DNA of 59,811 nucleotides from Nitrospinota bacterium (GTDB lineage: Bacteria > Nitrospinota > Nitrospinia > UBA9942), in the NCBI GenBank assembly GCA_016194325.1, contig JACQBS010000026.1, positions 1-59,811 on the forward strand, read 5' to 3'. The notes beneath the pieces were generated by a model, which was not told where the DNA came from, made no database searches, and saw only the letters and a list, made by a program, of their open reading frames with translations. Positions 3,545-18,138 of this stretch are shown one piece after another. Numbering within the stretch: the first letter of the stretch is position 1; every line of letters begins with the position of its first letter. A program made the translations under genes and the position numbers.

Positions 3545-4615
3545 TTAAACTAATGCCTTTGATAGGGTAGATTCGTTATCTTTTATCCACTTATAAATAT
3601 CTTCCAATATCTTTTTTGCTGAGTGAGTTGGTGTCCAGCCTGCTTCTGAAATAACCCTCCTACTATCACCAATATATATAGCAATATCAGCAGGTCTTGT
3701 AACTGATTCTTTGCCAATAGCAATCTTGTTTCCAGTGATTTCCTGACAGATTAAAGTCGTTTCAAGAAGGGAAAGGCTTATATCCTTACCACCGCCAACA
3801 TTATAAATCCTGCCATTTACCTTATCTATATTCTTTAGTTCAAAATCAACAAGGTTAAATAAATCCTCAATATGCAAAAGGTCGCGAACCTGTTTACCCT
3901 CTCCTCCAAAGCCGATATATTTTAAATTATCCTTTTTAAAATAATGGGCAAGCATCCAGAGGGTGAATACTCCCTGGTCAACCTTACCAAATTGCCATGG
4001 GCCTGCAATTACTCCGCATCTATTAATAACCCCTCTTAGCCCATACATTGAAATATATTCCTGAAGGAGTAATTCTGAACATAGTTTGGAGGCACCATAA
4101 AGAGAGCGGGAACCTTCAAGCGAAAAATCTTCTGTAATTCCTTCTGGAGACCACCCCTTTATATCCTGTCCCTCTTTCCATATATAATGTGTCTTATCTT
4201 CAGTAGTCTTAATCCCGTTGATTCTTTCATAGGGATAGACCCTGCTTGTTGAGAGAAATATAATATCAGCTTTTCGTTTCCTTGCATTTTCAAGACAATT
4301 AATAGTTCCTGTTAGATTGGTATTTACTACATATAAAGGGTTTCCTTCATATCCTGACAAGACTGATGGCTCTGCAGAGCATTCAATCATAGCATCATAA
4401 TCAATCTGTGGAAAATCTTCAGGGTTTCTTATATCGCCATGAATAAATTCTATACCTGTCTCTTTGAGCCGTTGGATATTAAGTTCTGAGCCACGACGTT
4501 TGAGATTGTCTAAGGCAATCACTCTAATTTTAGGATATTTTCCTTTGAGAGAAACTGATAGAGTGCTTCCTATAAAACCCGCACCACCTGTAATTAAGAT
4601 TGATTTATGTTTCAT
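3545..4615 (-). CDS. NAD-dependent epimerase/dehydratase (CDP-paratose/tyvelose epimerase-like)
   Basis: GGAGFIG Rossmann motif, YGASK catalytic motif, 'GKQVRDLLHIEDL'; start moved to ATG 4615 (MKHKSILITGG). Confidence 0.85.
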   Translation of the reverse strand: MKHKSILITGGAGFIGSTLSVSLKGKYPKIRVIALDNLKRRGSELNIQRLKETGIEFIHGDIRNPEDFPQIDYDAMIECSAEPSVLSGYEGNPLYVVNTNLTGTINCLENARKRKADIIFLSTSRVYPYERINGIKTTEDKTHYIWKEGQDIKGWSPEGITEDFSLEGSRSLYGASKLCSELLLQEYISMYGLRGVINRCGVIAGPWQFGKVDQGVFTLWMLAHYFKKDNLKYIGFGGEGKQVRDLLHIEDLFNLVDFELKNIDKVNGRIYNVGGGKDISLSLLETTLICQEITGNKIAIGKESVTRPADIAIYIGDSRRVISEAGWTPTHSAKKILEDIYKWIKDNESTLSKALV

Positions 4616-4732
4616 GTATAGGAAATTGTAAAAGCATTTAGACAGGATTAACAGTATAAACAAAAATTAATTAACAATTTCTTCTTCCTTTTTAAATCCT
4701 GTATATCCTGTCTAAATTTAGTTTTTGTCCTA

Positions 4733-5794
4733 TCAAAATTTCACCTGTTTCTGCACTTCAAATATTTCCTCCAGAGTTTTTCTTATGTCGTATTTAAAAT
4801 TCCACTCAGGGTAATGACTCTTAAATTTTGATACATCACTTATCCACCAGATATGGTCACCTGCCCTATTCTGGTCAACATATTCATAATTAAGCGTATT
4901 AACTGATATTTCTTCACAGAATTTAATTGCCTCCAAAATAGATATATTAGCATATCTACCTCCGCCAATATTATATACCTCAGCACATCTTGGTTCTTCA
5001 AAAAAGTAATTGAAGGCATTTACAAGGTCATTGGAGTGAATATTATCCCTTACCTGTTTTCCCTTATATCCGTAGATATAATATTTCTTTTTAGTAATAC
5101 AGCATCTCATCAGATATGATAGAAAACCGTGAAGTTTTGTGCCTGAGTGTGCAGGACCTGTAAGACAGCCGCCGCGAAATATGCCGGTCTTAAGTCCAAA
5201 ATATCTTCCGTATTCCTGAACCATTAAGTCTGCCGCTGCTTTTGAGGCACCAAAGAGGCTATGTTTTGACTGGTCAATGGACATTGTTTCATCAATACCG
5301 TTTACCCATCTGTGTCCATCCTCTATTTCAAATCGTGTATCTAATTCTTTTAAAGGGAGTGAGTTTGGCAAATCACCATAGACCTTATTTGTAGAGGTAA
5401 ATATAAATACGGCATCAGGACAGATATGGCGGAATGCCTCAAGAAGGTTAAGGGTCCCATTGGCATTTACAGAAAAATCCATAAATGGGTCATTAGCCGC
5501 CCAGTCATGTGATGGCTGTGCGGCAGTGTGGACAATTAATTTAATGTCGGATGAATAAGTTTTGAAGATATCTGAAATTATTTTAAAATCTCGTATGTCT
5601 GTATCGTAGTGAGTATAATTTTTGAAGTTAGATATAAGCTCCTGTTTGTTCCATTCAGTAGATGCATCTTTACCAAAGAAGACCTCTCTTAGATTATTGT
5701 CTATACCAATTACCCTATATCCTTTATTACAATAAATTTTTACAGTCTCAGAACCAATCAATCCTGCTGAACCGGTGACTATTACTACAGGCAT
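4733..5794 (-). CDS. NAD-dependent epimerase/dehydratase (CDP-tyvelose epimerase-like paralog)
   Basis: GSAGLIG, '[11 protein letters not shown]', 'FGASK', 'GKQVRDNIH'. Confidence 0.85.
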
Positions 5795-5852
5795 GGCTTA
5801 TTCCTTCCTAATTTAATGGCAGATGGGGCAACAAGTTATTTACAGAAACATG

Positions 5853-6665
5853 TTAAACCTTTTTCAAGTTTGATATGTTTTCAATATTGGATTTAATGAA
5901 ATTATTTGGAGGATAAAATCCCTTCTTCACTGTGATATTTGGATAGACCCATGAATTTTTACCAATGATGACACAGGGAGATGTAACAGTATTACATCCA
6001 ATTTCTACATAATCACCCAGCACAGCACCGAACTTTTTTACACCTGTATCTGTAGTCTTTCCCTCTGCATGTATCTTTATTGTATTAATCTTACCGCTTC
6101 TTTTTTCCTCTGATGTCCTGAACTGAAGATTTGCAAGCTTTGTCCCTGCACCTAAATTTACATAGCTGCCCACAATGCTGTCACCGATATAGGCAAAGTG
6201 CCCTGCCTCCGAGTGATTCATGAATATTGAATTTTTTATCTCAGTTGTATGCCCTATTACCGATTTATCCCCCACTATCACATTACCCCTGAAATAAGAA
6301 CCCTGCCTGATTTCGCAGTCATTACCAATAATTGCCGGGGCTTTTATGAGTGCAGTCGGCTCTAATACTGTGCCGCTTCCCACAAATATCCCCATCTCTT
6401 TCAAAAAGAGGTCTGACCTGATTTTAACCTCCCTCCCTACATACAATACCTTATCTATCAGGGTATCTTTTTCATCCCTCACCTCCTGAAGGGTTACCCC
6501 CTCAATTATCATCTTAGGCTGAACACTCTTTTCTATTTCCTTAAACCAGTCCTTTATATATTTGTTAATTCTTCCTGTTACATCCCAGTAATGGTTTATG
6601 CCTTCAAATATAGCCTTATGCCTGAACTCCGGAAGATGCTCAAATAAGTCTTCACTTTTTAGCAT
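5853..6665 (-). CDS. Hexapeptide-repeat sugar-phosphate acetyltransferase (archaeal GlmU C-terminal-like)
   Basis: Left-handed beta-helix repeats; 'GHFAYIGDSIVGSYVNLGAGTKLAN' and 'KFGAVLGDYVEIGCN'. Confidence 0.75.
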   Translation of the reverse strand: MLKSEDLFEHLPEFRHKAIFEGINHYWDVTGRINKYIKDWFKEIEKSVQPKMIIEGVTLQEVRDEKDTLIDKVLYVGREVKIRSDLFLKEMGIFVGSGTVLEPTALIKAPAIIGNDCEIRQGSYFRGNVIVGDKSVIGHTTEIKNSIFMNHSEAGHFAYIGDSIVGSYVNLGAGTKLANLQFRTSEEKRSGKINTIKIHAEGKTTDTGVKKFGAVLGDYVEIGCNTVTSPCVIIGKNSWVYPNITVKKGFYPPNNFIKSNIENISNLKKV

Positions 6666-6678
6666 ATCCCCCTCCCTT

Positions 6679-6724
6679 AAAACGGTTCAAACAGTTTAAA
6701 CGGCTTAAACGGTTTAAACCGCTT
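6679..6724. repeat. Short-period AAACGGTT(T)-type tandem/palindromic repeat
   Basis: AAAACGGTTCAAACAGTTTAAACGGCTTAAACGGTTTAAACCGCTT, overlapping the stop codon of the mutase gene. Confidence 0.6.
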
Positions 6725-8483
6725 TTTTAATTTCAGGTATTAGATAATCCTTTACCCTCTCGCCTATATATATGAGTTTATCACTATCATTTATTGAACC
6801 CCTTACGTTAACACCTGTCTTATCTTCTGTCCCTGAGTTTCTTACAAAGACACATCCCCGTAAAGAGTTCGGAGTTAGATTTACCCTCTGCTTATCATAT
6901 ATCGCAATATAAATCATATCTGGCTCCTCATCCCTCACTTTCAAAGATAATTCTACACTATTTTCAAATTTCTCCATACAGATATTTTTTATAAACCTCT
7001 CTAATTTTTTCCATAACTCAGTCCCCTTTGAAAGTCGGGATTTATCAGTTTTATAAATATAAAATGTTTTTTTAAAACCATGCTCAAACGGGCTATGCAG
7101 TTTTTTAAAATAACCCTTAGAATCCGATTTGCTGAGAATGGATTCTGATGCAACAAAGGTATTTATAGCACTCTTTAAGCCGTTTCCGGCAAATACAGAA
7201 ATTTCTTTATTATCTTTAGTCTTCAAATACCCTTCTGTAATATTGTGCCCACTCTCCTCACTCCCTATTGCAAACCTATTTGACGGTTGCATTGCCTCTT
7301 TAAGAAGCCATTTATCTCCAACCCCTGTGATTACAGCTTTAAACCCAATTTTTCCAGCTGCGATGGCAGTATTTATATCGCTCTCTATTGTATTCACATA
7401 TATAGAGCCTTTATACTTTTCCGGAAGCATTTCCATAAGATACATTGCCTGTAAAAATGCAGTCTCGTCCCCTGACAGGACAATTACAGTATCATCAAAG
7501 GGGTTATAATCAATCCTGTAAAACCTGTCTCCATCTGCATCAAATACAGCCCCTGCTACCCTTACCTCCCCCTTCTTTATTTCTTCTCTTTTATCCCTTC
7601 CAGTTTGGAAGATTTTATTTATAGCTTTGTTCTTTTCAAATCTCTTGCCCTCCTCAATCATATCGGATGTAATTAATGATATGCCTTCAAGGGCAACAAC
7701 GCCACAGTCCAGATTTACAGCACCATTGATGTAGTGGCTAACCTCAATTATTTCTTTAAATCCCAATCTCTTGAAAATATCAGCCGCAATCCCTGAAAAA
7801 GAACCGTTAGCCGGGTCAACAATCAAAACGATTTTTGAAAAAATGCCAGATTCCTTAATCCATGAATTTCTTAAATCACAAGAAAATTCAGTAAATACCC
7901 TGACTGCATCATCATGTACATATTCAAGTTCGCCTAAAAATCCCCTCGCAGCAAACCACCCCTCACCTTTCTCCTCTCCCCTGAGGGGAGAGGGTGGAGT
8001 GAGGGGAATTGATGTTTCAAAAAATTTCTTTGTAAGTCTTATATCATCTTCCGGGAAAAATTTCAATCCTGTTGGCTTAAATATTTTAATCCCATTCTGT
8101 CCCTTTGGGTTATGGGATGCAGTAATCATAAATCCGCCCTTTGCACCCTTGTAGAGCATATATATAGGTATTGCAGGTGTAGGGGTTATACCTAAAACTA
8201 CTGCCTTACCGCCTGCCTTTCTGATTCCGCTCACTGCCGCAGATGTAAATTCGCCTTCAATGTCGCGGGGGTCCCACCCGATGATTATATCTTCGCCAAT
8301 ATTCATTTCACCACTTTCTATCAAATTGGTCACATGGCAAAAAGTGTAAAGCTCCATGAACTCTTCAGTAATAAAACCCTTTTCAACAAATGCCTGAAGC
8401 GGTGACATCCCTTTTATGGCAGGGTCAGATGATAATCTTACATCTCTTCTAACACCATCTGTCCCTTGAAGTCTATTAATCAT
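6714..8483 (-). CDS. Alpha-D-phosphohexomutase (phosphoglucosamine mutase-like)
   Basis: 'GTDGVR', catalytic 'ITASHNP', metal loop 'FDADGDR', 'GSEESGH', 'VRNSGTE'; contains an in-frame hairpin insert. Confidence 0.85.
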   Translation of the reverse strand: MINRLQGTDGVRRDVRLSSDPAIKGMSPLQAFVEKGFITEEFMELYTFCHVTNLIESGEMNIGEDIIIGWDPRDIEGEFTSAAVSGIRKAGGKAVVLGITPTPAIPIYMLYKGAKGGFMITASHNPKGQNGIKIFKPTGLKFFPEDDIRLTKKFFETSIPLTPPSPLRGEEKGEGWFAARGFLGELEYVHDDAVRVFTEFSCDLRNSWIKESGIFSKIVLIVDPANGSFSGIAADIFKRLGFKEIIEVSHYINGAVNLDCGVVALEGISLITSDMIEEGKRFEKNKAINKIFQTGRDKREEIKKGEVRVAGAVFDADGDRFYRIDYNPFDDTVIVLSGDETAFLQAMYLMEMLPEKYKGSIYVNTIESDINTAIAAGKIGFKAVITGVGDKWLLKEAMQPSNRFAIGSEESGHNITEGYLKTKDNKEISVFAGNGLKSAINTFVASESILSKSDSKGYFKKLHSPFEHGFKKTFYIYKTDKSRLSKGTELWKKLERFIKNICMEKFENSVELSLKVRDEEPDMIYIAIYDKQRVNLTPNSLRGCVFVRNSGTEDKTGVNVRGSINDSDKLIYIGERVKDYLIPEIKKAV

Positions 8484-8630: not shown

Positions 8631-9233
8631 TTATGCTGTTGGATTTTTTAAAAGTTCATCTATTGTTTTTATGAAATCCTCAGAAGGCTGCTCATACTCT
8701 ATACCATAATAAGTTGTATCATACGGAGCCTGTTTTATATTTCTGATTATTCCCTTAAATGCTACCGGGCTGCTATTTTCATCATACTCAAATGAGAGCT
8801 GGATGTGATTTCCCGCCTTGTATTGAAGCATTGTCATTAATTTGCATCCGCCAAGACTCATGTCCACGATGGTTCCGTCACCAATCTTTTCATTTTTTTC
8901 ATCCATGATTGATGTCCAGTAGGATGTGGATACTCTATGGTGTTTTCTTATAGATACCCCTTCCGTCTTGGCAGGATATTTTATAATAATATTTGGTATC
9001 TTTCTCTTGAGAAGGACCGTATCAATGTTATATGCCATTCCGTCTTCAGCAATAAATTTAACCTTGCATTCAGTATCAGGCATTATATGAACGAGGGTTG
9101 CATCGGGATTGGAGAGTCTGATGGATATGCTTTCGCCTGCCGAAAACTCCATAATAACCCCCTGATATTTCTTTTCAAAAATCTCCACAAGGATACGAAG
9201 CCCTGTATAAAATATCTCTTTAGCCATTATCAA
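8631..9233 (-). CDS. PilZ-domain c-di-GMP receptor (YcgR/flagellar-brake-like)
   Basis: RxxxR ('RKHHR') and DxSxxG ('DMSLGG') motifs after an N-terminal YcgR-like domain. Confidence 0.85.
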   Translation of the reverse strand: MIMAKEIFYTGLRILVEIFEKKYQGVIMEFSAGESISIRLSNPDATLVHIMPDTECKVKFIAEDGMAYNIDTVLLKRKIPNIIIKYPAKTEGVSIRKHHRVSTSYWTSIMDEKNEKIGDGTIVDMSLGGCKLMTMLQYKAGNHIQLSFEYDENSSPVAFKGIIRNIKQAPYDTTYYGIEYEQPSEDFIKTIDELLKNPTA

Positions 9234-9535: not shown

Positions 9536-10363
9536 ATGTCTACAATTCTTGGGATTATAATTGGCATATCCCTGTTGTTTGTCGCCATTTTTGTAGAAGG
9601 GGGAGGGATTGGATACTTTATAAACCCGGCCTCTATGATGATTGTTATAGGAGGTGTTATTGCAGCCATATTTATCGGCTTCCCCCTGCCGAGGGTAATG
9701 GGAGTATTCAGGGCTGCGGCACAGGCATTCAGGGCTGACATTCAGCAGCCGTCATGGGTCATAGGACTTATCGTGAGGCTTGCCGTCAAGGCGAGACAAC
9801 AGTCTTTATTGGCTCTGGAGGGAGAGGCGGACAGAATTAATAACAGATTCATAAGGCTTGGATTGGAGATGGTTATAGATGGTCAGCCATCGGACTTAAT
9901 ACGGGATGTGTTGGATACAGAGCTTGATGTCCTACAGGTAAGGCATAGAGCCGGCGGACATATATTAAGAACTGCCGCCAAACTTTCACCTGCCTTTGGA
10001 CTTATCGGAACGCTTATAGGACTTATATCTATGCTTCGGAGTCTTGGGGCAGAGGCCGGTATGGGAGGACTTGGCAAAGGCATGGCTATATCTCTTGTAA
10101 GTACCTTTTATGGTGTTATGGGAACCAATCTACTTTTCCTGCCTCTGGCAGAAAAACTCCGTTCAAGGACAGATGATGAAGTTTTAAGAACAAAGATAAT
10201 TACGGAGGGTATCCTGATGCTTCAGGCAGGTGCAAATCCCAGGGTTATAGAGAGGAAACTGAATTCATTCCTACCGCCGGATCTGAGGATGTCCCATTAC
10301 GAAAAAATAATTAAGAAAATGCGGGTAGAAACCAAAACAGAAGGATCTGAAGAATTTGTATAA
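9536..10363 (+). CDS. motA: Flagellar stator MotA/PomA-family protein
   Basis: TM helices, 'LLALE', 'SPAFGLIGTLIGLISML', 'MAISLVSTFYG', 'EGILMLQAGANPRVIERKL'. Confidence 0.9.
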   Translation: MSTILGIIIGISLLFVAIFVEGGGIGYFINPASMMIVIGGVIAAIFIGFPLPRVMGVFRAAAQAFRADIQQPSWVIGLIVRLAVKARQQSLLALEGEADRINNRFIRLGLEMVIDGQPSDLIRDVLDTELDVLQVRHRAGGHILRTAAKLSPAFGLIGTLIGLISMLRSLGAEAGMGGLGKGMAISLVSTFYGVMGTNLLFLPLAEKLRSRTDDEVLRTKIITEGILMLQAGANPRVIERKLNSFLPPDLRMSHYEKIIKKMRVETKTEGSEEFV

Positions 10364-10368
10364 TTACC

Positions 10369-11037
10369 ATGGGGAAAAAAAACTACGATAAAGGCAGAGA
10401 AGACGGTGTAGAGGAAGGATATGAAGATGGAGAAGAGACTGCAATCTGGGCGCTATCATTCAGTGATATGATAATCCAGTTGATGGTCTTTTTTGTCCTT
10501 TTATTATCTATATCAGTTCCAAATGCAGAGCAATTTAATGCGGTGATGGAGCAGCTTCAGTCAAAATTTAAAAAGACGGTTGAACCCACAAAATTAGAGG
10601 CAGTTCAGGAACAGATAGAGAAGCTAATAGTTGATGAAAATCTTTCAAAGGATGTGCATTTAACATCAGATACGAGGGGTATAGTCCTCTTTGCAAGCGG
10701 CGACCTTTTTTTTAAATCAGGAGAGTCAGAACTGAATGCTGAAATAAAATATTTCCTTGATAATATCAATGACACAATAAAGGATGTCCCTTATAAATTG
10801 CTTGTAGAGGGGCATACTGATGATACCCCAATCAAAACGGAGAGATTTCCGTCAAACTGGGAACTGTCATCTGCCCGTGCGAGCAGTGTTGTGAAATACT
10901 TTATTGAAAAAGGGGTTGCACCTGTCAGACTTTCGGCTGTAGGGTATGCCGAGTATAAACCAAGGTTTCCAAAGACACCCGAAAACCGCCCCAAAAATAG
11001 GAGGGTGGAGATAGTTATATTGAGGGAAAGGGTGTGA
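10369..11037 (+). CDS. motB: Flagellar stator MotB-family protein (OmpA-like peptidoglycan-binding domain)
   Basis: 'WALSFSDMIIQLMVFFVLL' with the conserved Asp; 'VEGHTDD', 'SNWELSSARA', 'NRRVEI'. Confidence 0.9.
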   Translation: MGKKNYDKGREDGVEEGYEDGEETAIWALSFSDMIIQLMVFFVLLLSISVPNAEQFNAVMEQLQSKFKKTVEPTKLEAVQEQIEKLIVDENLSKDVHLTSDTRGIVLFASGDLFFKSGESELNAEIKYFLDNINDTIKDVPYKLLVEGHTDDTPIKTERFPSNWELSSARASSVVKYFIEKGVAPVRLSAVGYAEYKPRFPKTPENRPKNRRVEIVILRERV

Positions 11038-11632
11038 ATACCCTTCTTCCTTTGACAACAATTCTTCCCTCTGCAAATAATTTTATTGCCTCTGGATATA
11101 TTCTGTGCTCCTCCTTTAATATCCTTTCAGACAGAATCTCAGGTGTATCTGTATCCATGATCGGGACAACAGACTGTATGATTATTGGCCCGGAATCTAC
11201 ACCTTCATCTACAAAATGGACAGTGGCGCCTGTGAATTTTACTCCGTAATCCAGTGCCTTTTTTTGTACTTCAAGCCCCGGGAATGCAGGGAGGAGAGAT
11301 GGGTGGATATTAATTATCCTCCTTTTATATTTATTGACGAAATATGGGGTTAATATCCGCATGAAGCCTGCAAGACAGACAAGCCCGATATCCTTTTCCT
11401 CCAGTATCTTTATTATTGCCCTATCGTAGTCATCTTTAGATTTACAAGATGATGGGTCAATAAATACACCTTCAATATTATGCCTCTTTGCCCTCTCAAG
11501 GGCATAGGCATCCTTTTTATTACTGATAATAACTTCAATCACTCCGTTAATCTTGCCAGATTCAATTGCATCTATTATTGCCTGCAGATTTGAACCCCTG
11601 CCTGATACAAGGACAGCAATTTTTAAAGACAT
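11015..11632 (-). CDS. purN: Phosphoribosylglycinamide formyltransferase
   Basis: 'SGRGSNLQA', 'LAGFMRIL', 'NIHPSLLPAFPG', 'TVHFVDEGVDSGPII'. Confidence 0.97.
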   Translation of the reverse strand: MSLKIAVLVSGRGSNLQAIIDAIESGKINGVIEVIISNKKDAYALERAKRHNIEGVFIDPSSCKSKDDYDRAIIKILEEKDIGLVCLAGFMRILTPYFVNKYKRRIINIHPSLLPAFPGLEVQKKALDYGVKFTGATVHFVDEGVDSGPIIIQSVVPIMDTDTPEILSERILKEEHRIYPEAIKLFAEGRIVVKGRRVFTPFPSI

Positions 11633-11638
11633 AGGAAA

Positions 11639-13894
11639 TTATAAAGAAGTGTCAGTGACACTGACACTGACATTTTCAAGGGTTTGTTCTTTTATCTTTT
11701 TCAAAAGGGTGATATTCTCCGTGTGTCCAGTCATCCTTGCAGTTATCCGCCCCTTTATCTGTTTTCCAAGGAGATAAAAATCCCCGATTATATCAAGAAT
11801 CTTGTGCCTGACAAATTCATTATCAAATCTTAATTGTGTATTTATTACCTTCTCATTATCCACTAAGATTACATTACTCAATTTGCCGCCGCTCCCCAAT
11901 CCCATCTCCTCTAATTTCTCATAGTCTTTTATGAATGCAAATGTCCTTGCCGGGGCAATCTCATTTTTAAAAGATTTTTCACCATCTGCTACAAATGTAT
12001 AATCCAATCGTCCTATCGGAGGTGGATAATCCATTGAATAATTTACAGTAAACTTTTCAGAAGGCTCTATGTAGATATACCTGCCCGTTGAGATATCGCC
12101 AACCATATATTTTTTATCTATGACCATTTCATTTGCTATTTCATCCTGCTCTTCTATCCCCCCATCTTCAATCAACTGACAAAAATCAGCGGCAGAGCCG
12201 TCCATTATTGGCACCTCATCTCCTATCTTTATGAGTAGATTTGTAATGCCATACATGTGGAGAACTGCCATGATATGTTCTACAGTCTTTACAGAAGTCA
12301 TTCCATTCTTAAGCGTAGTGGCGTAATCTGTTGATTGAACATATTCTAAATTAGCAGGGACTGTTTCTCCGGATGATATATCACCAAATATTATTCCGCT
12401 GTTGGATGGCAGAGGTGAGAGGATTAAACCTGTTTTCAAGCCTGAATGCAGCCCCTGTCCGCACAAGACCACACTCTGCTTAAGTGTCTTTTGGAGAATT
12501 GTTTCCCTGTAAATATCGGCATCCTTTTGCAGACTGTCTTTTTCGCCCACGGGTATATTGAGTCTTTTTAATTTTCTGATCAGACTTATCCTGTCTGTGT
12601 TTAAGGCTGCTGCAGTTTTTGAAATATCAAAGTTATATTTTTCAAGATGATGGATAATAAATTCTTTCTCCCACGCCTTCTCAGCCTCTTCCATAGAACT
12701 ATAGCCGTCAAACCATGCCGACCTGCTCCTCACTGAAATAACAGGAATTGCAGTAGATACATCTTTTACTGATATAATATTCCCCTGTGCAGTCATTACT
12801 ATATGCTCAATAACATTCTTTAATTCTTTTGCATTCCCCTGCCAGCTGAAGTTTGTAAATATATCCATTGCATCGTCATCAATCTTTTCAATTCTCTTAT
12901 TATATTCATTGCTGAAATATTTGATGAAGTATCTTACAAGTTCAGGTATGTCTTCTCTCCTCTCCTTCAGGGAAGGAAGATTTATTGTTGCTTCATTGAG
13001 GAGATTTAAAAGCCCATCTTTAAACTTGCCCTTCTTGACCTCCTCTCTCAGGACTTGATTTGAGGATGCTATGACCCTTGCATGGAAGGGGATAAAACCC
13101 CTCCCCCCCTTTCTTTTATATTTTTTCTCTCTCAATACTTTTATTAATTTATTCTGGAGTTTTATGCTGAGCCCTTCTATATCGTCAAGAAAGAGGGTTC
13201 CATCTTCTGCCTGTTCAAATTTACCTTTCTTAATGAAGGCATCTTTTCTATTTCCGACTTTTATGCCAAAGAGAAACTCTTCTGCCTCATCCTCTTTTAT
13301 GGCAGAACAGTTTACCCTTATAAATGGGACATCTTTCTTAAGACCTTGAATATGTATCAGCCGTGCAATAAATTCCTTTCCTGTCCCCCTCTCCCCACTG
13401 ATGATTACATTTTTACGGCTGTTAGATGATGCCTTGACCAGCTTTTTTACCTCTGCAATAACATCGCTGTTACCTACAATTTCTTCTACTTCAGTGTTTA
13501 ATGTGATTATGAATTCTTTGGCAGGTTTTTTATGCTCAAATGCTGCCCTGACTGTTGAAATTACATTATCCAGTGACAGAGGTTTTTCTATAAAATCAAA
13601 TGCCCCAAGTTTTGTCGCCCTTACAGCGGTTTCTATAGTGCCATGTCCTGACATCATGATTACATCTAAATCAGACCGCAGCATCTTTATCGTCTTGAGG
13701 GTCTGGATACCGTCAAGCCCTGGTATCCATATATCAAGAAGGACAAGGTCAGGGGATTTAGATTTAATTATTTTCAATGCCTCTGAGCCGTCCTTTGCCT
13801 TTGATACAGAGAAGCCCTCATCTGCTAATATGCCTTCCAGGGAGGAAAGTATATTCTCTTCATCATCTACAACCAATATATGACCTTTGTCCAT
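11639..13894 (-). CDS. lpxC: NtrX-like response regulator (REC-AAA+-HTH) fused to UDP-3-O-acyl-GlcNAc deacetylase LpxC
   Basis: REC 'LLDIW...SGHG...EKP'; AAA+ 'GERGTGKE'; Fis-type HTH; then LpxC 'QKTL...GQGLHSG', 'TVEHIM', 'EIAPARTF', 'HKILDIIGD' in one reading frame. Confidence 0.88.
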   Translation of the reverse strand: MDKGHILVVDDEENILSSLEGILADEGFSVSKAKDGSEALKIIKSKSPDLVLLDIWIPGLDGIQTLKTIKMLRSDLDVIMMSGHGTIETAVRATKLGAFDFIEKPLSLDNVISTVRAAFEHKKPAKEFIITLNTEVEEIVGNSDVIAEVKKLVKASSNSRKNVIISGERGTGKEFIARLIHIQGLKKDVPFIRVNCSAIKEDEAEEFLFGIKVGNRKDAFIKKGKFEQAEDGTLFLDDIEGLSIKLQNKLIKVLREKKYKRKGGRGFIPFHARVIASSNQVLREEVKKGKFKDGLLNLLNEATINLPSLKERREDIPELVRYFIKYFSNEYNKRIEKIDDDAMDIFTNFSWQGNAKELKNVIEHIVMTAQGNIISVKDVSTAIPVISVRSRSAWFDGYSSMEEAEKAWEKEFIIHHLEKYNFDISKTAAALNTDRISLIRKLKRLNIPVGEKDSLQKDADIYRETILQKTLKQSVVLCGQGLHSGLKTGLILSPLPSNSGIIFGDISSGETVPANLEYVQSTDYATTLKNGMTSVKTVEHIMAVLHMYGITNLLIKIGDEVPIMDGSAADFCQLIEDGGIEEQDEIANEMVIDKKYMVGDISTGRYIYIEPSEKFTVNYSMDYPPPIGRLDYTFVADGEKSFKNEIAPARTFAFIKDYEKLEEMGLGSGGKLSNVILVDNEKVINTQLRFDNEFVRHKILDIIGDFYLLGKQIKGRITARMTGHTENITLLKKIKEQTLENVSVSVTDTSL

Positions 13895-13903
13895 AGTAAC
13901 AGC

Positions 13904-13970
13904 AGGTTAAGGTTGAGGTTAAGGTTTAGATTTTAGATTTTTTTCTTAACCTCGACCTTGACCTTAACCT
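13904..13970. repeat. AGGTT(A/G)-hexamer inverted-repeat element
   Basis: AGGTTAAGGTTGAGGTTAAGGTT ... CTTAACCTCGACCTTGACCTTAACCT between the ntrY-like and ntrX-lpxC genes. Confidence 0.8.
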
Positions 13971-13977
13971 ATATTTT

Positions 13978-16206
13978 TCATGCCGGCAGTTCAATTATAA
14001 AATTTGCACCTCTCGGCTGATTATCCTCAATTCTTATGATTCCACTATGGTCTACCACTATTCTATTTGCAATGGCAAGCCCCAGCCCTGACCCTTTTTT
14101 CTTTGTGGAAAAATATGGCAGGAACAGCTTATCCTTATTCTCATCAGGTATGCCTATACCATTATCCTTCACTTCAATCCTTACCGTTTTACCATCCTTT
14201 GTTAGAGATGTATCAATTTCTATAATCCCGTTACCATGCACTGCATCTATAGAATTTTCTATAAGATTTATGAATACCCGTTTGAACTGCTCATGGTCTA
14301 CATTTATTATATCTATTTTTGAATCATAGTTGGTTAAAAACTTTATCCCCTTCCTTATATCTTTGTAAAGGGCAAGCGTGTCATCTATAATGCGGTGGAG
14401 TTTGTAAGGCTTTGGATTAGGCTCAGGCATACGAGCGAACTTGGAAAATTCATCAATCAGCTTTTTAAGCCCCTCAACCTCTTGAATAATTACATTCGTG
14501 CTTTCATCAAATACCTCTATAAAATCTGGAGAACCCTCCTTAAACTTCTTTTTCAATCTCTGTGTATTCAACTGGATTGGCGTAAGGGGATTTTTTATTT
14601 CGTGTGCTATACCCCTTGCAACCTCCCGCCAGGCAGCGGTTTTCTGGGCCTTTATGAGTTCTGTCAGGTCATCAAATACTATTACTATGCCAAGGTATTT
14701 CCCCTCTGTATTTTTTAAGGCAGTTGCATTTACAAGGAGGGTAATTAATCTCCCTGATACCATAATCTGAATCTGGCCGTTTACACTCTCCCTTCTCGCC
14801 TCGTTCATGACTTTTATCATTGCCCTTACAGGGTCTAAATATGATGCATCAAATGCCTTTTTATACGGCTCTCCTTTAACCTTTTTCGCCTGAATATTTA
14901 ATATCTTTGATGCAGCTTCATTTATGGTAGAGACCCTCCCGTGGCTGTCAACGGAGATTACACCTGTGGCGATATTTTCCAATACAGTTTCCATGTAGCC
15001 CTTCCTCTGCTCCAGCTCGATGTTGGTCTCTTTTAATTCCTCATTTGCCTTTTCTATTGCAAGCTTCCCTTCTTTTAGATCAGAGGTCATCTGATTAAAT
15101 GATTCCACCAGCATTCCTATTTCATCATTTGCCTTGGCAGTAATTTTAAAATCTAAATTTCCCTCTGCTACCGACTTGGTTGCCTCAGCCAATTCCTTTA
15201 TTGGAACTGTTATACCCTTAGCCAGATAGAAACCAAACCATATTGCCGAGAATAGTATCAAAAGCGTAATAAGAAGAAGTGTTATCTCGTAGCTCAGTTT
15301 TATTGGATATTTGAGGAGTTTTAGCTGTTTGTATTCCTCAAAGGCATTCACAATATTCTCAATCTTACTAACCATATCCTTTGAAATGAACCAGGAGACA
15401 ACTGTTATGCCGGCTATATTCTGACTGCCGGCAGCAGACTGCTGAGAGATTTTTATAGGAGATACCCCGACTACGAGATTTTTTTTGTCTATCAATATAA
15501 TCTCCGATACATCTTCCCCGCTCAATGCCTTTTCAAGTAATGGGTTTAATTTTTCATTGAGTATCTTCTCTTTAAGGGCAGATTCTATGGATTCAGCAAC
15601 AAGATTTAGATTGCTGTCAAAGACAAGTATTCCGTCAACTTTGTAATCAACCCTCTTTTTAAGGACACTATTTTTAAGATACTGGAGATTTTCTTTATTG
15701 ACCATGTTCTTCTCTGAAATGAGTTCATTCAGCATGTTTGCATACAGGAGTATATTTTTTCCCGAGCCTGCATAATAACCCTCCGCGACATCTAAAGAAC
15801 CTTTCAGGGAGTTTTCTATCTGTTGATTGAACCAGTTATTTATACTGTTTGTAAGGAGTCCGCTGGCTACCAAAAACAGAAGAAGAGAGGGGACGAATGT
15901 AAGGACTGCAAATGACAAAACTAATTTTGTCCTGAACCTTGCACCGATAATTTTCCATTTTCTATCTAAATATAGTTTTACCAGATTTTTGCCTACTATC
16001 AGCACCAATACAGATAGGAGGATTATGTTTATATTGACAAGGAGCAGAACTGCAATATTGCTGGCAATCGGGGTTGATACATGAGACTGCTGTATATATA
16101 CTTCTACTGAAGTTAAGACAATAAGGAGCAGAAGGATACCGAATACTATCCAACGTGTTCTTTTCCTTTTTTTTCTGATGTATTCGTCAGAAAGACGGTA
16201 ATCCAT
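13978..16206 (-). CDS. ntrY: NtrY-family sensor histidine kinase (HAMP-PAS-HisKA-HATPase)
   Basis: Multi-TM N-terminus, HAMP 'DEIGMLVESFNQMT', H-box 'AHEIKNPLTPIQL', N-box 'NLIENSIDA', G-boxes 'DNGIG' and 'GSGLGL'. Confidence 0.88.
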   Translation of the reverse strand: MDYRLSDEYIRKKRKRTRWIVFGILLLLIVLTSVEVYIQQSHVSTPIASNIAVLLLVNINIILLSVLVLIVGKNLVKLYLDRKWKIIGARFRTKLVLSFAVLTFVPSLLLFLVASGLLTNSINNWFNQQIENSLKGSLDVAEGYYAGSGKNILLYANMLNELISEKNMVNKENLQYLKNSVLKKRVDYKVDGILVFDSNLNLVAESIESALKEKILNEKLNPLLEKALSGEDVSEIILIDKKNLVVGVSPIKISQQSAAGSQNIAGITVVSWFISKDMVSKIENIVNAFEEYKQLKLLKYPIKLSYEITLLLITLLILFSAIWFGFYLAKGITVPIKELAEATKSVAEGNLDFKITAKANDEIGMLVESFNQMTSDLKEGKLAIEKANEELKETNIELEQRKGYMETVLENIATGVISVDSHGRVSTINEAASKILNIQAKKVKGEPYKKAFDASYLDPVRAMIKVMNEARRESVNGQIQIMVSGRLITLLVNATALKNTEGKYLGIVIVFDDLTELIKAQKTAAWREVARGIAHEIKNPLTPIQLNTQRLKKKFKEGSPDFIEVFDESTNVIIQEVEGLKKLIDEFSKFARMPEPNPKPYKLHRIIDDTLALYKDIRKGIKFLTNYDSKIDIINVDHEQFKRVFINLIENSIDAVHGNGIIEIDTSLTKDGKTVRIEVKDNGIGIPDENKDKLFLPYFSTKKKGSGLGLAIANRIVVDHSGIIRIEDNQPRGANFIIELPA

Positions 16207-16229
16207 AAGTTTATCCTAAATAGAGAGTA

Positions 16230-16414
16230 GAACGCAGATTTACAGGATTTAAAATGAGTTACGCAGATAAATTCAATTTTTTCTTAGGAAACGCATGAAT
16301 AAAAGAATATCATTTCCTGTTCTCATGGATTCCTTATAATAATTTTCTTAAATCATATATTTTCTGCGTTCACCCCGTAAGACCTTCGGTCTCTTACGTG
16401 GTTCATCTGCGTCC
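16230..16414. repeat. CGCAGAT/ACAGGAT-type inverted-repeat element with an internal hairpin
   Basis: GAACGCAGAT (16230) and ACGCAGAT pair with TCTGCGT and ATCTGCGTCC (to 16414); internal CGTAAGACCTTCGGTCTCTTACG hairpin. Confidence 0.6.
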
Positions 16415-16427
16415 AATTGCATTTTTT

Positions 16428-17126
16428 TTAGTCAGCAGAAAATGGGGACGAAACTTCCCAGTCGGTTGTAACATCCCACAATGATACAAAGAAGAGGATA
16501 TAATTAAATGGGAACCAGAGTTTAATAGTTTTTAAATCTGCCTTTATATTTACATAATATTTACTACCGGATGCCGGCGGTTTTGTGGGCGTAATTTTTA
16601 TTGACTCTAAGTTGGCGAGCCACTTTTTTAATTCATCAAAATCCTTTGTAGCCTTTTCATTAATTAAAGGGGGCGAGGATTCAAGGGTTCCATGGTTCAA
16701 GGTTTTACTTTCACTTGACCCCTCAACTCCTTGACCCTTCAAATCCTTTTCACTATTATTCTTCTTATCAGGAGGCAATGCAGACTCCTCTATCTCTTCA
16801 CTAAATTTATATTCCTTTTTTAAGACATCATATTTAACAGTCCTTTTAATTGTCTTTGAGTATTCAGTTCTATCGTACCACCCTGAACGGTAGCGCATCA
16901 GCTTGATGTAATATGTAAATGTAGTAGGGGCGCCACTATGAATAATCTCTTCAATCTCGGTTGTAAAGCCCCCTTTTAATTTTGCAGAAAGGAGCAGTTC
17001 TGAAGATGAATTAGTTACAGATATATCCGCCATAAACGGACTTGAGGCATATGAATAGCCGGAAAAAAACAGATAGCAAAAAACAAATATAAAGCAATAA
17101 AATAAAAAGTTTTTAAATATTTTCAT
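16428..17126 (-). CDS. DUF4390-domain exported protein
   Basis: Signal peptide; 'IHSGAPTTFTYYIKL...WYD...VKYDVLKKEY'; located upstream of ntrY, the usual DUF4390 context. Confidence 0.75.
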   Translation of the reverse strand: MKIFKNFLFYCFIFVFCYLFFSGYSYASSPFMADISVTNSSSELLLSAKLKGGFTTEIEEIIHSGAPTTFTYYIKLMRYRSGWYDRTEYSKTIKRTVKYDVLKKEYKFSEEIEESALPPDKKNNSEKDLKGQGVEGSSESKTLNHGTLESSPPLINEKATKDFDELKKWLANLESIKITPTKPPASGSKYYVNIKADLKTIKLWFPFNYILFFVSLWDVTTDWEVSSPFSAD

Positions 17127-17172
17127 AATTGAGCTAATATCTTATCACAAATAAGAAAAAAAGTATTAAATA

Positions 17173-17204
17173 ATCTGTGTTTATCTGTGTAAATCTGTGG
17201 CTAA
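17173..17204. repeat. Single arm of a CACAGAT-family repeat
   Basis: ATCTGTGTTTATCTGTGTAAATCTGTGGCTAA. Confidence 0.6.
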
Positions 17205-17217
17205 TAATCTTTTTCTT

Positions 17218-18138
17218 TTATTCGTTTTCAAAAAATCTTATAGTTTTTGAAAGTCCGTCTTTGAGAGGATATTTGGGAGTCCAATTATATTCAGAATTTA
17301 TTTTGTTATAGCTTATAACACTCCTCCTCTGTTCCCCCATCTTTGCAGGGCCATGGATAGGCTTTATATCTGTCTCTGAAATTTTAAGCATGAGGTTGCA
17401 GAGTTCGTTAACCGATGTCTCTATACCTGTGCCAATATTATATGTTCCATTAATGTCGCTTTTTATAGCCATAATATTAGCCTCCACTACATCTTCCACA
17501 AATGTATAATCTCTTGTCTGTCCCCCATCGCCATTTATAATAGGCGGTTCCCCCTTTAGAATCTTTTTTGCAAATATAGCCACTACGCCTGCCTCTCCAT
17601 GCGGGTCCTGCCTTGGGCCATATACATTGGCATATCTCAGTATTGTAAATTCAAGATTATATGTCCTTTTATAAAAATAGAGATATTTCTCTGAAGCCAA
17701 TTTTGAGATACCGTAAGGGCTTAACGGATTTTGCGGGTGTTTCTCATCAGCAGGAAAATAATCCTGCTCGCCATAGACAGCACCACCTGTAGAGGCGAAG
17801 ATAAATTTCTTAATTTTATACTTAACTGCCAATTGCAGAAGATTTAATGAGCCGAGTATATTGACATCCGCATCATAAATAGGGTCATCAACAGATTTTC
17901 TCACATCCATCTGGGCTGCGTGGTGGTTTATAATATCAATCTTGTTTTCTTTAAATATACCCTCTAACCCTTCCCTGTTTCTTATATCAATCTTATAAAA
18001 TTTTGCCTTAGGGTTTAAATTCTTTAATTTACCTGTTATTAAATTATCTACAACTATTACCTGATGACCTTCTTTTATAAATCTATCTGCTGCATTGGAC
18101 CCTATGAAACCTGCACCGCCTGTAATAAGTATATTCAT
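17218..18138 (-). CDS. UDP-glucose 4-epimerase-like SDR (extended)
   Basis: GGAGFIG, 'HHAAQMDVRKS', YGISK, 'NVYGPRQDPHGEAGVVAIF', 'QTRDY'. Confidence 0.9.
   Translation of the reverse strand: MNILITGGAGFIGSNAADRFIKEGHQVIVVDNLITGKLKNLNPKAKFYKIDIRNREGLEGIFKENKIDIINHHAAQMDVRKSVDDPIYDADVNILGSLNLLQLAVKYKIKKFIFASTGGAVYGEQDYFPADEKHPQNPLSPYGISKLASEKYLYFYKRTYNLEFTILRYANVYGPRQDPHGEAGVVAIFAKKILKGEPPIINGDGGQTRDYTFVEDVVEANIMAIKSDINGTYNIGTGIETSVNELCNLMLKISETDIKPIHGPAKMGEQRRSVISYNKINSEYNWTPKYPLKDGLSKTIRFFENE

Follow-up and report, generated by a model that had tools for sequence, protein, structure and literature searches.

Lipid A synthesis is controlled at LpxC, an enzyme that is also a major target for antibiotics. 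The described routes of its control are proteolysis by FtsH/LapB/YejM in E. coli, Lon in some alphaproteobacteria, and activation by MurA in Pseudomonas aeruginosa; for bacteria other than Enterobacteria, little is settled on how LpxC activity is balanced against the synthesis of phospholipids and the cell wall (PMC12444477). The response regulator DVU2934 of D. vulgaris has a single target, lpxC. Orthologues were also described for Geobacter and Acidobacterium, and the regulator operon of S. fumaroxidans adjoins lpxC (PMC3333781). In R. sphaeroides and Caulobacter, NtrYX represses the transcription of lpxC indirectly (PMC7240162, PMC12444477). Here we analyse a stretch of 59,811 nucleotides (nt) from a Nitrospinota bacterium (GenBank assembly GCA_016194325.1, contig JACQBS010000026.1, positions 1 to 59,811; “the window”), which contains a single open reading frame (ORF) encoding both the receiver domain (REC) of a response regulator and a complete LpxC, directly downstream of a gene for an NtrY-type sensor kinase. 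The comparison with hundreds of relatives suggests that in this arrangement a membrane kinase controls LpxC directly, and not through gene expression.

The locus shares features with several described systems. DVU2931/DVU2934 of D. vulgaris Hildenborough (PMC3333781) resembles it in that a response regulator has lpxC as its single mapped target, and the distribution of DVU2934 orthologues as well as the synteny in Syntrophobacter match the closest stand-alone relatives found here. However, the regulator and LpxC of D. vulgaris are separate proteins and control is transcriptional, whereas the window encodes one polypeptide from which the sigma-54 determinants are gone. The alphaproteobacterial NtrY-NtrX systems (R. 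sphaeroides, Caulobacter, Brucella; PDB 5m7n) likewise comprise an NtrY-type kinase and a regulator with the order REC, AAA+ and helix-turn-helix (HTH) that has no GAFTGA loop, and they are tied to envelope control and lpxC expression. In contrast to the window protein, alphaproteobacterial-type NtrX of the sampled loci keeps the Walker B residues DE, the FREDL motif and a strongly conserved HTH (83%), and it has many target genes, with lpxC affected only indirectly. The kinase and the regulator of the window are nearer to GAFTGA-type systems than to alphaproteobacterial NtrYX, and the cut-off of the NtrX model was missed. In the PlrP-PlrS-PlrR system of Bordetella, a DUF4390 gene is situated directly upstream of the gene for an NtrY-family kinase, as it is in the window, and PlrP has recently been proposed to act in the periplasm as the third component of the system, holding back the phosphatase activity of the kinase PlrS (PMC13001219). 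The output of that system is the transcription factor PlrR, whereas the output protein of the window carries LpxC.

Response regulators with enzymatic outputs include the methylesterase CheB, the diguanylate cyclases PleD and WspR, and the HD-GYP protein RpfG. They share with the short REC-LpxC proteins described below an N-terminal receiver, a linker and a C-terminal enzyme, but they are signalling enzymes, whereas the output of REC-LpxC is an enzyme of envelope biosynthesis. The FtsH/LapB/YejM, Lon and MurA routes depend on separate partner proteins and on a C-terminal degron or an activator, whereas the controller proposed here is covalently attached and driven by phosphotransfer. The bifunctional LpxC-FabZ (NF009667) is also a natural fusion involving LpxC; however, its LpxC is N-terminal and joined to a lipid enzyme, whereas LpxC of the window is C-terminal and joined to a signalling domain. 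A literature search retrieved no paper describing a receiver-LpxC fusion or LpxC as the output of a receiver, and the words “fusion”, “fused” and “response regulator” are absent from a 2025 review of lipid A regulation (PMC12444477). Membership in the LpxC family, the canonical receiver and response regulators with enzymatic outputs as a class are already known, and the sequences themselves are public. New here are the REC-linker-LpxC family, the single clade of fused LpxCs, the pattern of AAA+ decay, and unfused, lpxC-linked GAFTGA relatives with -24/-12 promoters.

The fused ORF is a single frame of 751 amino acids (aa) with an ATG start, and it is composed of the following parts:

11639..13894, minus strand: whole fused ORF, 751 aa, with REC, decayed AAA+ core, lid, weak HTH, linker and LpxC
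13550..13879, minus strand: receiver (REC; Response_reg), residues 6-115, Pfam 107 bits
12983..13480, minus strand: sigma-54-type AAA+ core (Sigma54_activat, PF00158), residues 139-304, Pfam 141 bits
12746..12967, minus strand: AAA+ lid (AAA_lid_14, PF25601), residues 310-383, Pfam 79 bits
12560..12670, minus strand: Fis-type HTH (HTH_8, PF02954), residues 409-445, Pfam 20.5 bits
12500..12553, minus strand: variable, disordered linker, residues 448-465, without a usable internal start
11642..12499, minus strand: complete LpxC domain, residues 466-751

The receiver has D10, D11, the phospho-acceptor D54, S82 and K104 in place. The LpxC domain is matched by Pfam PF03331 over residues 468-735 (276 bits, model positions 1-267 of 268), and the NCBIfam lpxC model TIGR00325 gives 247 bits for the protein, above its cut-off of 187 bits. 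The motifs TVEH, ARTF, HKILDxxGD and TGH are present. With E. coli LpxC as the reference (zinc ligands H79, H238 and D242; catalytic E78, H265, T191, K239 and D246), the zinc and catalytic residues are E539, H540, T651, H697, K698, D701, D705 and H724. The alignment with solved LpxC structures runs from end to end and places the native N-terminus at about residue 463-465. The domain is thus complete and its catalytic residues are intact, and deacetylase activity is predicted. The LpxC-FabZ model scored 217 bits against a cut-off of 465 bits, and no FabZ domain was found in the Pfam scan of the window protein.

The middle of the protein has the fold of a sigma-54 activator and keeps Walker A (GERGTGKE), but it lacks GAFTGA, the Glu of Walker B and the arginine finger, and there is no -24/-12 promoter at its target. 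GNRKDA stands where GAFTGA is expected, FLDDIE where FLDEI is expected, and FKDGLLNLL replaces FREDLYYRL in the alignment to Aquifex NtrC4 (PDB 4l4u). The HTH is graded as weak because its score falls just under the gathering score of 22 bits. The best-scoring regulator model was NCBIfam NtrX (NF051870), with 359 bits, i.e. below its cut-off of 600 bits. An earlier note, made from the window sequence by itself, had described one 751-aa ORF with the order REC, AAA+, HTH and LpxC, had placed LpxC at about 11639-12499, and had named an NtrY-like kinase directly upstream. The ORF call and the Pfam domains agree with this architecture, every REC, AAA+ and LpxC motif it quoted is present, the LpxC domain maps to 11642-12499, and the Pfam domains of the upstream ORF (13978..16206) are those of such a kinase.

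The architecture REC, Sigma54_activat and LpxC (“long form”) is not confined to the window. In a collection of 5.8 billion proteins clustered at 90% identity, it was found in at least 120 clusters from several phyla, all of 701-773 aa and with identities of 45-93%, a recurrence far in excess of chance. The window protein itself had no exact entry among public assemblies. The source names include Nitrospinae, Nitrospinaceae, Nitromaritima, Tectomicrobia, Schekmanbacteria and Thermodesulfobacteriota, and contigs as long as 2.3 and 3.25 Mb carry some of the members, the 3.25-Mb contig being that of P0092. Of the relatives examined, the three nearest (L163-L165), which are 74-90% identical and belong to the lineage of the window, stem from three different metagenomes; all have the gene order DUF4390, ntrY, fusion and purN, and their fusion ORFs are uninterrupted. 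An assembly chimera, or a recent loss of the stop codon between adjacent ntrX and lpxC genes, has a negligible probability and is excluded for practical purposes, because the same uninterrupted ORF recurs in hundreds of independent assemblies from several phyla and in the three metagenomes of the window's own lineage. The fusion that the earlier note had taken to be real has thus passed this test, and by the comparison of these sequences it is old and under selection. Public records name these proteins only “LpxC” or “NtrX”, so that the architecture is hidden from users of product names.

A further possibility is that free LpxC is released by internal initiation or by proteolysis of the linker, and that the fusion is only an expression device. 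The linker is indeed disordered and variable, and in a Thermodesulfobacteriota metagenome-assembled genome (MAG; L085, 5181 region) a Met is found exactly at the LpxC boundary (..RLMQKTL..), though no Shine-Dalgarno (SD) sequence; this Met may have remained from the start codon of the once separate lpxC. In the window, as noted earlier, the LpxC boundary has no Met, and there is no ATG in the linker. In the 35 codons that precede LpxC, the sole alternative start in frame is a GTG (codon -19), which is not associated with an SD-like sequence. The Nitrospina locus L084 has no ATG, GTG or TTG within 35 codons before LpxC, and no conserved start codon with an SD sequence exists in the linkers of the long-form relatives. 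In addition, one frame has been kept across phyla and in the short forms, which would be unnecessary were the parts meant to separate. We regard the release of free LpxC as quite improbable. Separate translation, which the earlier note had listed as a refutation, was rejected because a conserved internal start with an SD sequence was not found in the linker.

To characterise the selection on the individual domains, mean pairwise identities were calculated for the long forms and for two groups of unfused regulators:

58 long fused forms: REC 63%, AAA+ core 34%, lid 40%, HTH region 40%, LpxC 64%
50 stand-alone NtrY-linked regulators: REC 54%, AAA+ core 66%, lid 46%, HTH region 49%
15 alphaproteobacterial-type NtrX: REC 67%, AAA+ core 61%, lid 56%, HTH region 83%

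REC and LpxC are the two strongly conserved domains of the long fused forms, whereas the order is reversed in the stand-alone relatives, in which the AAA+ core is best conserved. The linkers of the long forms are 12-20% identical, with a mean of 12% for the linker corresponding to residues 448-465, and only three of the 47 columns of the HTH region are at least 90% conserved. The zinc and catalytic residues of LpxC are invariant across the 58 long forms, and D54, S/T82 and K104 are retained in all of 121 long-form proteins. GAFTGA and the arginine motif FRxDLxxRL are both absent from 120 of 120 long forms, showing that the degeneracy of the AAA+ domain, which the earlier note had seen in the window, extends across this family. 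The Walker B Glu is retained in nine and the first Walker B Asp in 64 of the 121 proteins; the Walker A Lys is retained in 119. The AAA+ module is predicted to lack contact with sigma-54 and canonical ATP hydrolysis, and it probably still binds nucleotide.

A much smaller form of the fusion (“short form”) is encoded on a 1.09-Mb chromosome of a deltaproteobacterial MAG (L005). In this 447-aa protein, a linker of about 50 residues joins REC to LpxC, and no further domain is present. With it as the query, at least 120 further clusters were retrieved, almost all of 430-474 aa (about 420-475 aa for the short forms as a whole) and with PF00072 and PF03331 as the only domains; their source names include Deltaproteobacteria, Syntrophobacterales and Thermodesulfobacteriota. 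Short forms are encoded in the complete genomes CP070817.1 (1.09 Mb) and CP070774.1 (2.07 Mb), and UCD70876.1 and MBW2040173.1 are examples of such proteins. In 63 short forms, the zinc and catalytic residues of LpxC are invariant except for the Thr, which is at least 90% conserved. Scans of species-representative genomes, which yield a sample of fused genomes and no census and in which ordinary NtrX-like regulators or LpxC genes predominate, revealed at least 14 loci with an LpxC 50-73% identical to that of the window; the other LpxCs in the same scan are, among the matches listed, at most 47% identical. All 14 loci encode fusions, i.e. eight long forms (Nitrospinota, Nitrospina, Thermodesulfobacteriota and Desulfomonile) and six short forms (Deltaproteobacteria, Syntrophobacter and Holophagales). 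At two loci (L091 and L094), the gene order is ruvA, ruvB, ntrY and REC-LpxC; the fused protein has no DNA-binding domain, and the kinase is complete, with NtrY_N, HAMP, PAS, HisKA and HATPase_c. An action of the receiver on LpxC itself gains support from the many lineages that keep only REC and LpxC, and from the two REC-LpxC genes that directly follow a complete ntrY.

These data also bear on a very improbable alternative, namely that the fused LpxC is a sensor or moonlighting module that might bind the lipid A precursor and report it to the regulator, while a separate stand-alone lpxC does the housekeeping. It could draw on a few stand-alone LpxC-like proteins near the fused clade (P0276 and P0284). 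However, the catalytic and zinc residues are kept in long and short forms alike, LpxC is the sole output domain of the short forms, the 1.09-Mb genome retains a REC-LpxC gene, and no second lpxC is present in the 59.8-kb window. The fused LpxC is probably the main, housekeeping LpxC of the cell. As a side observation, P0276 and P0284 comprise 283-290 aa, are 43-49% identical and have altered motifs, i.e. GLLSG or GLFSG for GLHSG, NVDGSG for IMDGSA, and ARSFNT for ARTFGF; they could represent diverged paralogues or the LpxCs of an unusual lineage.

An exhaustive HMMER search of 1.84 billion representatives at 50% clustering yielded about 45 representatives with LpxC at the C-terminus of a longer protein. 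Two of the proteins are intermediates between the long and the short form: P0254 (Candidatus Entotheonellia) has the order REC, HTH_8 and LpxC and no AAA+ domain, while in P0243 REC is followed by about 120 residues and then by LpxC. Neighbour-joining trees were calculated for single domains. In the LpxC tree (58 domains), 97 of 100 bootstrap replicates unite the fused proteins in a single clade. The long forms are not monophyletic (0 of 100), and neither are the short forms (0 of 100); a subclade of short forms (94 of 100) is nested among the long forms. REC and LpxC are the constant parts, and because neither form is monophyletic, more than one loss of the AAA+/HTH module (or, less likely, more than one gain) is implied.

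The origin of the regulator half was approached via its stand-alone relatives. Among the matches listed, the closest are NtrY-linked regulators (L002-L050) with identities of 38-45%, nearly all of which have a GAFTGA-type loop; the window kinase is mostly 30-44% identical to kinases beside GAFTGA-type regulators, with 40-44% for those in Nitrospira, Deltaproteobacteria and Acidobacteriota MAGs. The hosts of these systems are Nitrospira, Deltaproteobacteria, Geobacter and Acidobacteriota MAGs. Alphaproteobacterial-type NtrX systems stand further away (regulator 34-37% identical, kinase 25-31%), and in the sampled loci they have no GAFTGA but keep DE and FREDL. The closest stand-alone regulators are intact, with GAFTGA or GSFTGA, Walker B DE and FREDLYYRLN. 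As they keep all motifs, the AAA+ decay is specific to the fused proteins and would have followed the fusion. An inheritance of the degeneracy from NtrX was rejected for the same reason, and the link to sigma-54-independent NtrX that had been drawn in the earlier note does not hold, since the nearest relatives are of the GAFTGA type and the NtrX score is 359 bits against the required 600.

At six stand-alone loci among the matches listed (L008, L014, L019, L027, L040 and L068), lpxC is found shortly upstream of ntrY on the same strand, and ntrY is followed by a GAFTGA-type regulator; at four of them (L008, L019, L027 and L068), DUF4390 is situated between lpxC and ntrY. The unfused state thus appears already to tie an NtrY-linked regulator system to lpxC. 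A -24/-12 element of the sigma-54 type is present within 400 nt upstream of lpxC at four of the six loci, compared with a chance expectation of 0.17 matches for the six regions and with three of 61 ordinary lpxC loci (Fisher P = 6e-4). No such element was found on either strand in window positions 11000-17400. Among the control loci, a -24/-12-like element upstream of a stand-alone lpxC was observed at L097, L106 and L161, i.e. in Pyxidicoccus, a Verrucomicrobiaceae MAG and an Acidobacteriota MAG, and the control of lpxC by sigma-54 may extend beyond the syntenic loci.

The genes upstream of the fused ORF would encode its input:

16428..17126, minus strand: DUF4390 protein, PlrP-like, 232 aa, first gene of the cassette (Pfam PF14334, 98 bits)
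13978..16206, minus strand: NtrY-type sensor histidine kinase, 742 aa (Pfam NtrY_N, HAMP, PAS, HisKA, HATPase_c)

The DUF4390 protein is the presumed periplasmic partner of the kinase. Its gene has the same position in L163, L164 and L165, and also in L001, L089 and several unfused loci. The kinase gene lies directly upstream of the fusion in the window, L001, L085, L089, L091, L094 and L163-L165.

Taken together, the sequence comparisons favour, with moderate confidence, a functional LpxC that is tethered to the REC of an NtrY-type two-component system and is under its direct control. An envelope-related signal sensed by DUF4390/NtrY would determine whether D54 is phosphorylated. The membrane kinase NtrY is probably modulated by the DUF4390/PlrP-like protein, and its phosphorylation of Asp54 would change the dimerisation or oligomerisation of the receiver. 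This change would be relayed through the helical linker, and in the long form also through the nucleotide-binding, hydrolysis-dead AAA+ scaffold, and it would alter the activity of LpxC, its access to substrate or membrane or its localisation, or its stability. The flux into lipid A would thereby be set at the committed step. An AlphaFold2 model of the long form has confident domains and a predicted template modelling score (pTM) of 0.51, with a predicted local distance difference test (pLDDT) value below 50 for residues 451-463. The model of the short form also has confident domains (pTM 0.65); alpha5 extends as a 38-residue helix (108-145) and is followed by a disordered tether of 23 residues, a layout typical of receivers signalling by a changed dimer geometry. 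The proposal in the earlier note that phosphorylation may directly regulate the activity, oligomer state or turnover of LpxC has gained comparative support from the REC-LpxC forms and from the conservation of REC and LpxC, while the effect and its direction are as conjectural as before. The alternative given there, transcriptional autoregulation by the enzyme, is disfavoured, since the HTH shows poor conservation and has repeatedly been lost.

We infer that control moved from transcription to the protein after the fusion of an lpxC-specific sigma-54 two-component system. In this history, an ancestral sigma-54 activator paired with NtrY would have driven the transcription of the neighbouring lpxC and would then have become fused to the lpxC product, its own target. 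Subsequently, the sigma-54-contacting and ATPase determinants would have decayed, and several lineages would have deleted AAA+ and HTH, leaving REC-LpxC.

Several points weigh against this reading or parts of it. The receiver-domain tree gives no single origin of the fused receivers (0 of 50); it is too weak to confirm the deletion scenario, which rests on the LpxC tree and the intermediates. The orthology of the regulator half with DVU2934 is deduced from taxonomic distribution and synteny, not from sequence. The AlphaFold2 monomers have disordered tethers and no defined packing between domains, and their low pTM values (0.51 and 0.65) give no basis for a REC-LpxC interface, so that the mechanism and its sign are inferred. 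The AAA+ module is not simply junk, because the Walker A Lys and parts of the lid stay conserved. Many fused genes, e.g. those of L081, L082, L083 and L086, have no adjacent kinase, and the partnership with NtrY is assumed for them; at L081 and L083 the partner kinase must be encoded elsewhere. The last point of this kind is a rival explanation that we consider unlikely: the long form could be mainly an NtrX-like, sigma-54-independent DNA-binding regulator, with LpxC as a passenger for co-expression or stoichiometry. Phosphorylation would then control DNA binding and not the enzyme, and LpxC levels would track the autoregulation of the operon. The HTH_8 region is still detectable (20.5 bits), the helix preceding the HTH has the near-invariant residues A404, W408 and L417, 119 of 121 proteins retain the Walker A Lys, NtrX is the best NCBIfam match, and NtrYX is a known repressor of lpxC transcription in alphaproteobacteria. 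However, the HTH region of the fused proteins is the least conserved of the three groups (40%, compared with 49% and 83%), and HTH and AAA+ are deleted in large sister families with intact receiver and LpxC, at two loci beside ntrY. In addition, no operator-like repeat is shared in footprints of the ntrY-fusion spacer and of the region that precedes DUF4390; the only conserved block upstream of DUF4390 resembles an extended -10 element near the DUF4390 start.

Direct control of LpxC by the receiver, if true, would be a mode apart from the FtsH/LapB/YejM, Lon and MurA routes, and the covalent receiver-LpxC would be a directly testable example of phosphorylation-dependent control of the lipid A step. 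The short forms are suited for in vitro work because they are small and look soluble. For NtrY-family kinases, whose signals and role stay debated, the fusion would offer a concrete readout with a single output. It would also mean that a sigma-54 transcription factor was fused to the product of its own target and became a post-translational switch, with loss of the transcription machinery. The series that leads from separate genes with a sigma-54 promoter via the full fusion with its decayed ATPase and REC-HTH-LpxC to REC-LpxC would document, with unusual completeness, how regulation has been rewired in nature as domains were fused and lost. We see about an even chance that the long and short REC-LpxC proteins together constitute an undescribed class of response regulators, in which the committed enzyme of lipid A synthesis is the output and an NtrY-type envelope sensor tunes synthesis by direct phosphotransfer.

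Two further features of the cassette are situated on either side of the fused ORF:

13904..13970, minus strand: tandem-repeat hairpin in the spacer between ntrY and the fusion, an inverted repeat with 27-nt arms
11015..11632, minus strand: purN-like formyltransferase (PF00551, 191 bits), starting 6 nt past the stop codon of the fusion

The hairpin is built of short tandem AGGTTAAGGTTG units and occupies nearly the whole 83-nt spacer; its RNA fold has -30.4 kcal/mol (z = -8.3). L165 has an analogous hairpin at the same place with different repeats, while L163 and L164, with spacers of only 16-32 nt, have none. The hairpin at 13904-13970 may serve in processing, in stabilisation or in translation. 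A scan for sigma-70 promoters gave 22 matches compared with 21.3 expected and was uninformative. The purN gene is probably co-transcribed with the fusion gene, and it is also found directly 3′ of the fusion in L001, L081, L083, L088 and L163-L165. A second, 9-bp hairpin of GTGTCA repeats followed by a T-rich stretch (11648-11668) overlaps the last codons of the fusion just before purN; these codons encode the window-specific tail VSVSVTDTSL. Its fold is modest (z = -3.1), and it may be an attenuator between lpxC and purN.

The DUF4390 gene beside ntrY in the window extends the reported pairing with the NtrY family beyond Proteobacteria to a Nitrospinota-like lineage, and the pairing is also present in Acidobacteriota and deltaproteobacterial MAGs (L008, L019, L027 and L068). 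Among the fused genes without an adjacent kinase, the orphan of L081 has GreA and TrmB-like methyltransferase genes upstream and purN, lolA and rseP-like genes downstream, and in the Nitrospinota locus L083 unannotated ORFs of matching size and position are found upstream and purN downstream. In Desulfomonile (L093, 1438-4002), an 854-aa ORF with a receiver-like beginning and a weak kinase-like match lies upstream of the fusion, and in Holophagales (L095, 2290-4712) ORFs with weak kinase-like and receiver-like similarity precede the fused gene; partner switching is possible at both loci.

Beside purN, the window encodes a MotA/ExbB-like (9536-10363), a MotB/OmpA-like (10369-11037) and a PilZ/YcgR-like protein (8631-9233), a trio that is retained in L163-L165. 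Sugar-nucleotide and envelope polysaccharide genes flank the cassette (3545-8483 and 17218-18138). They encode three NAD-dependent epimerases/dehydratases, a transferase with hexapeptide repeats and a long protein (589 aa) that resembles PGM/PMM. Next in line in L163 is a Glyco_transf_9 gene of the heptosyltransferase type.

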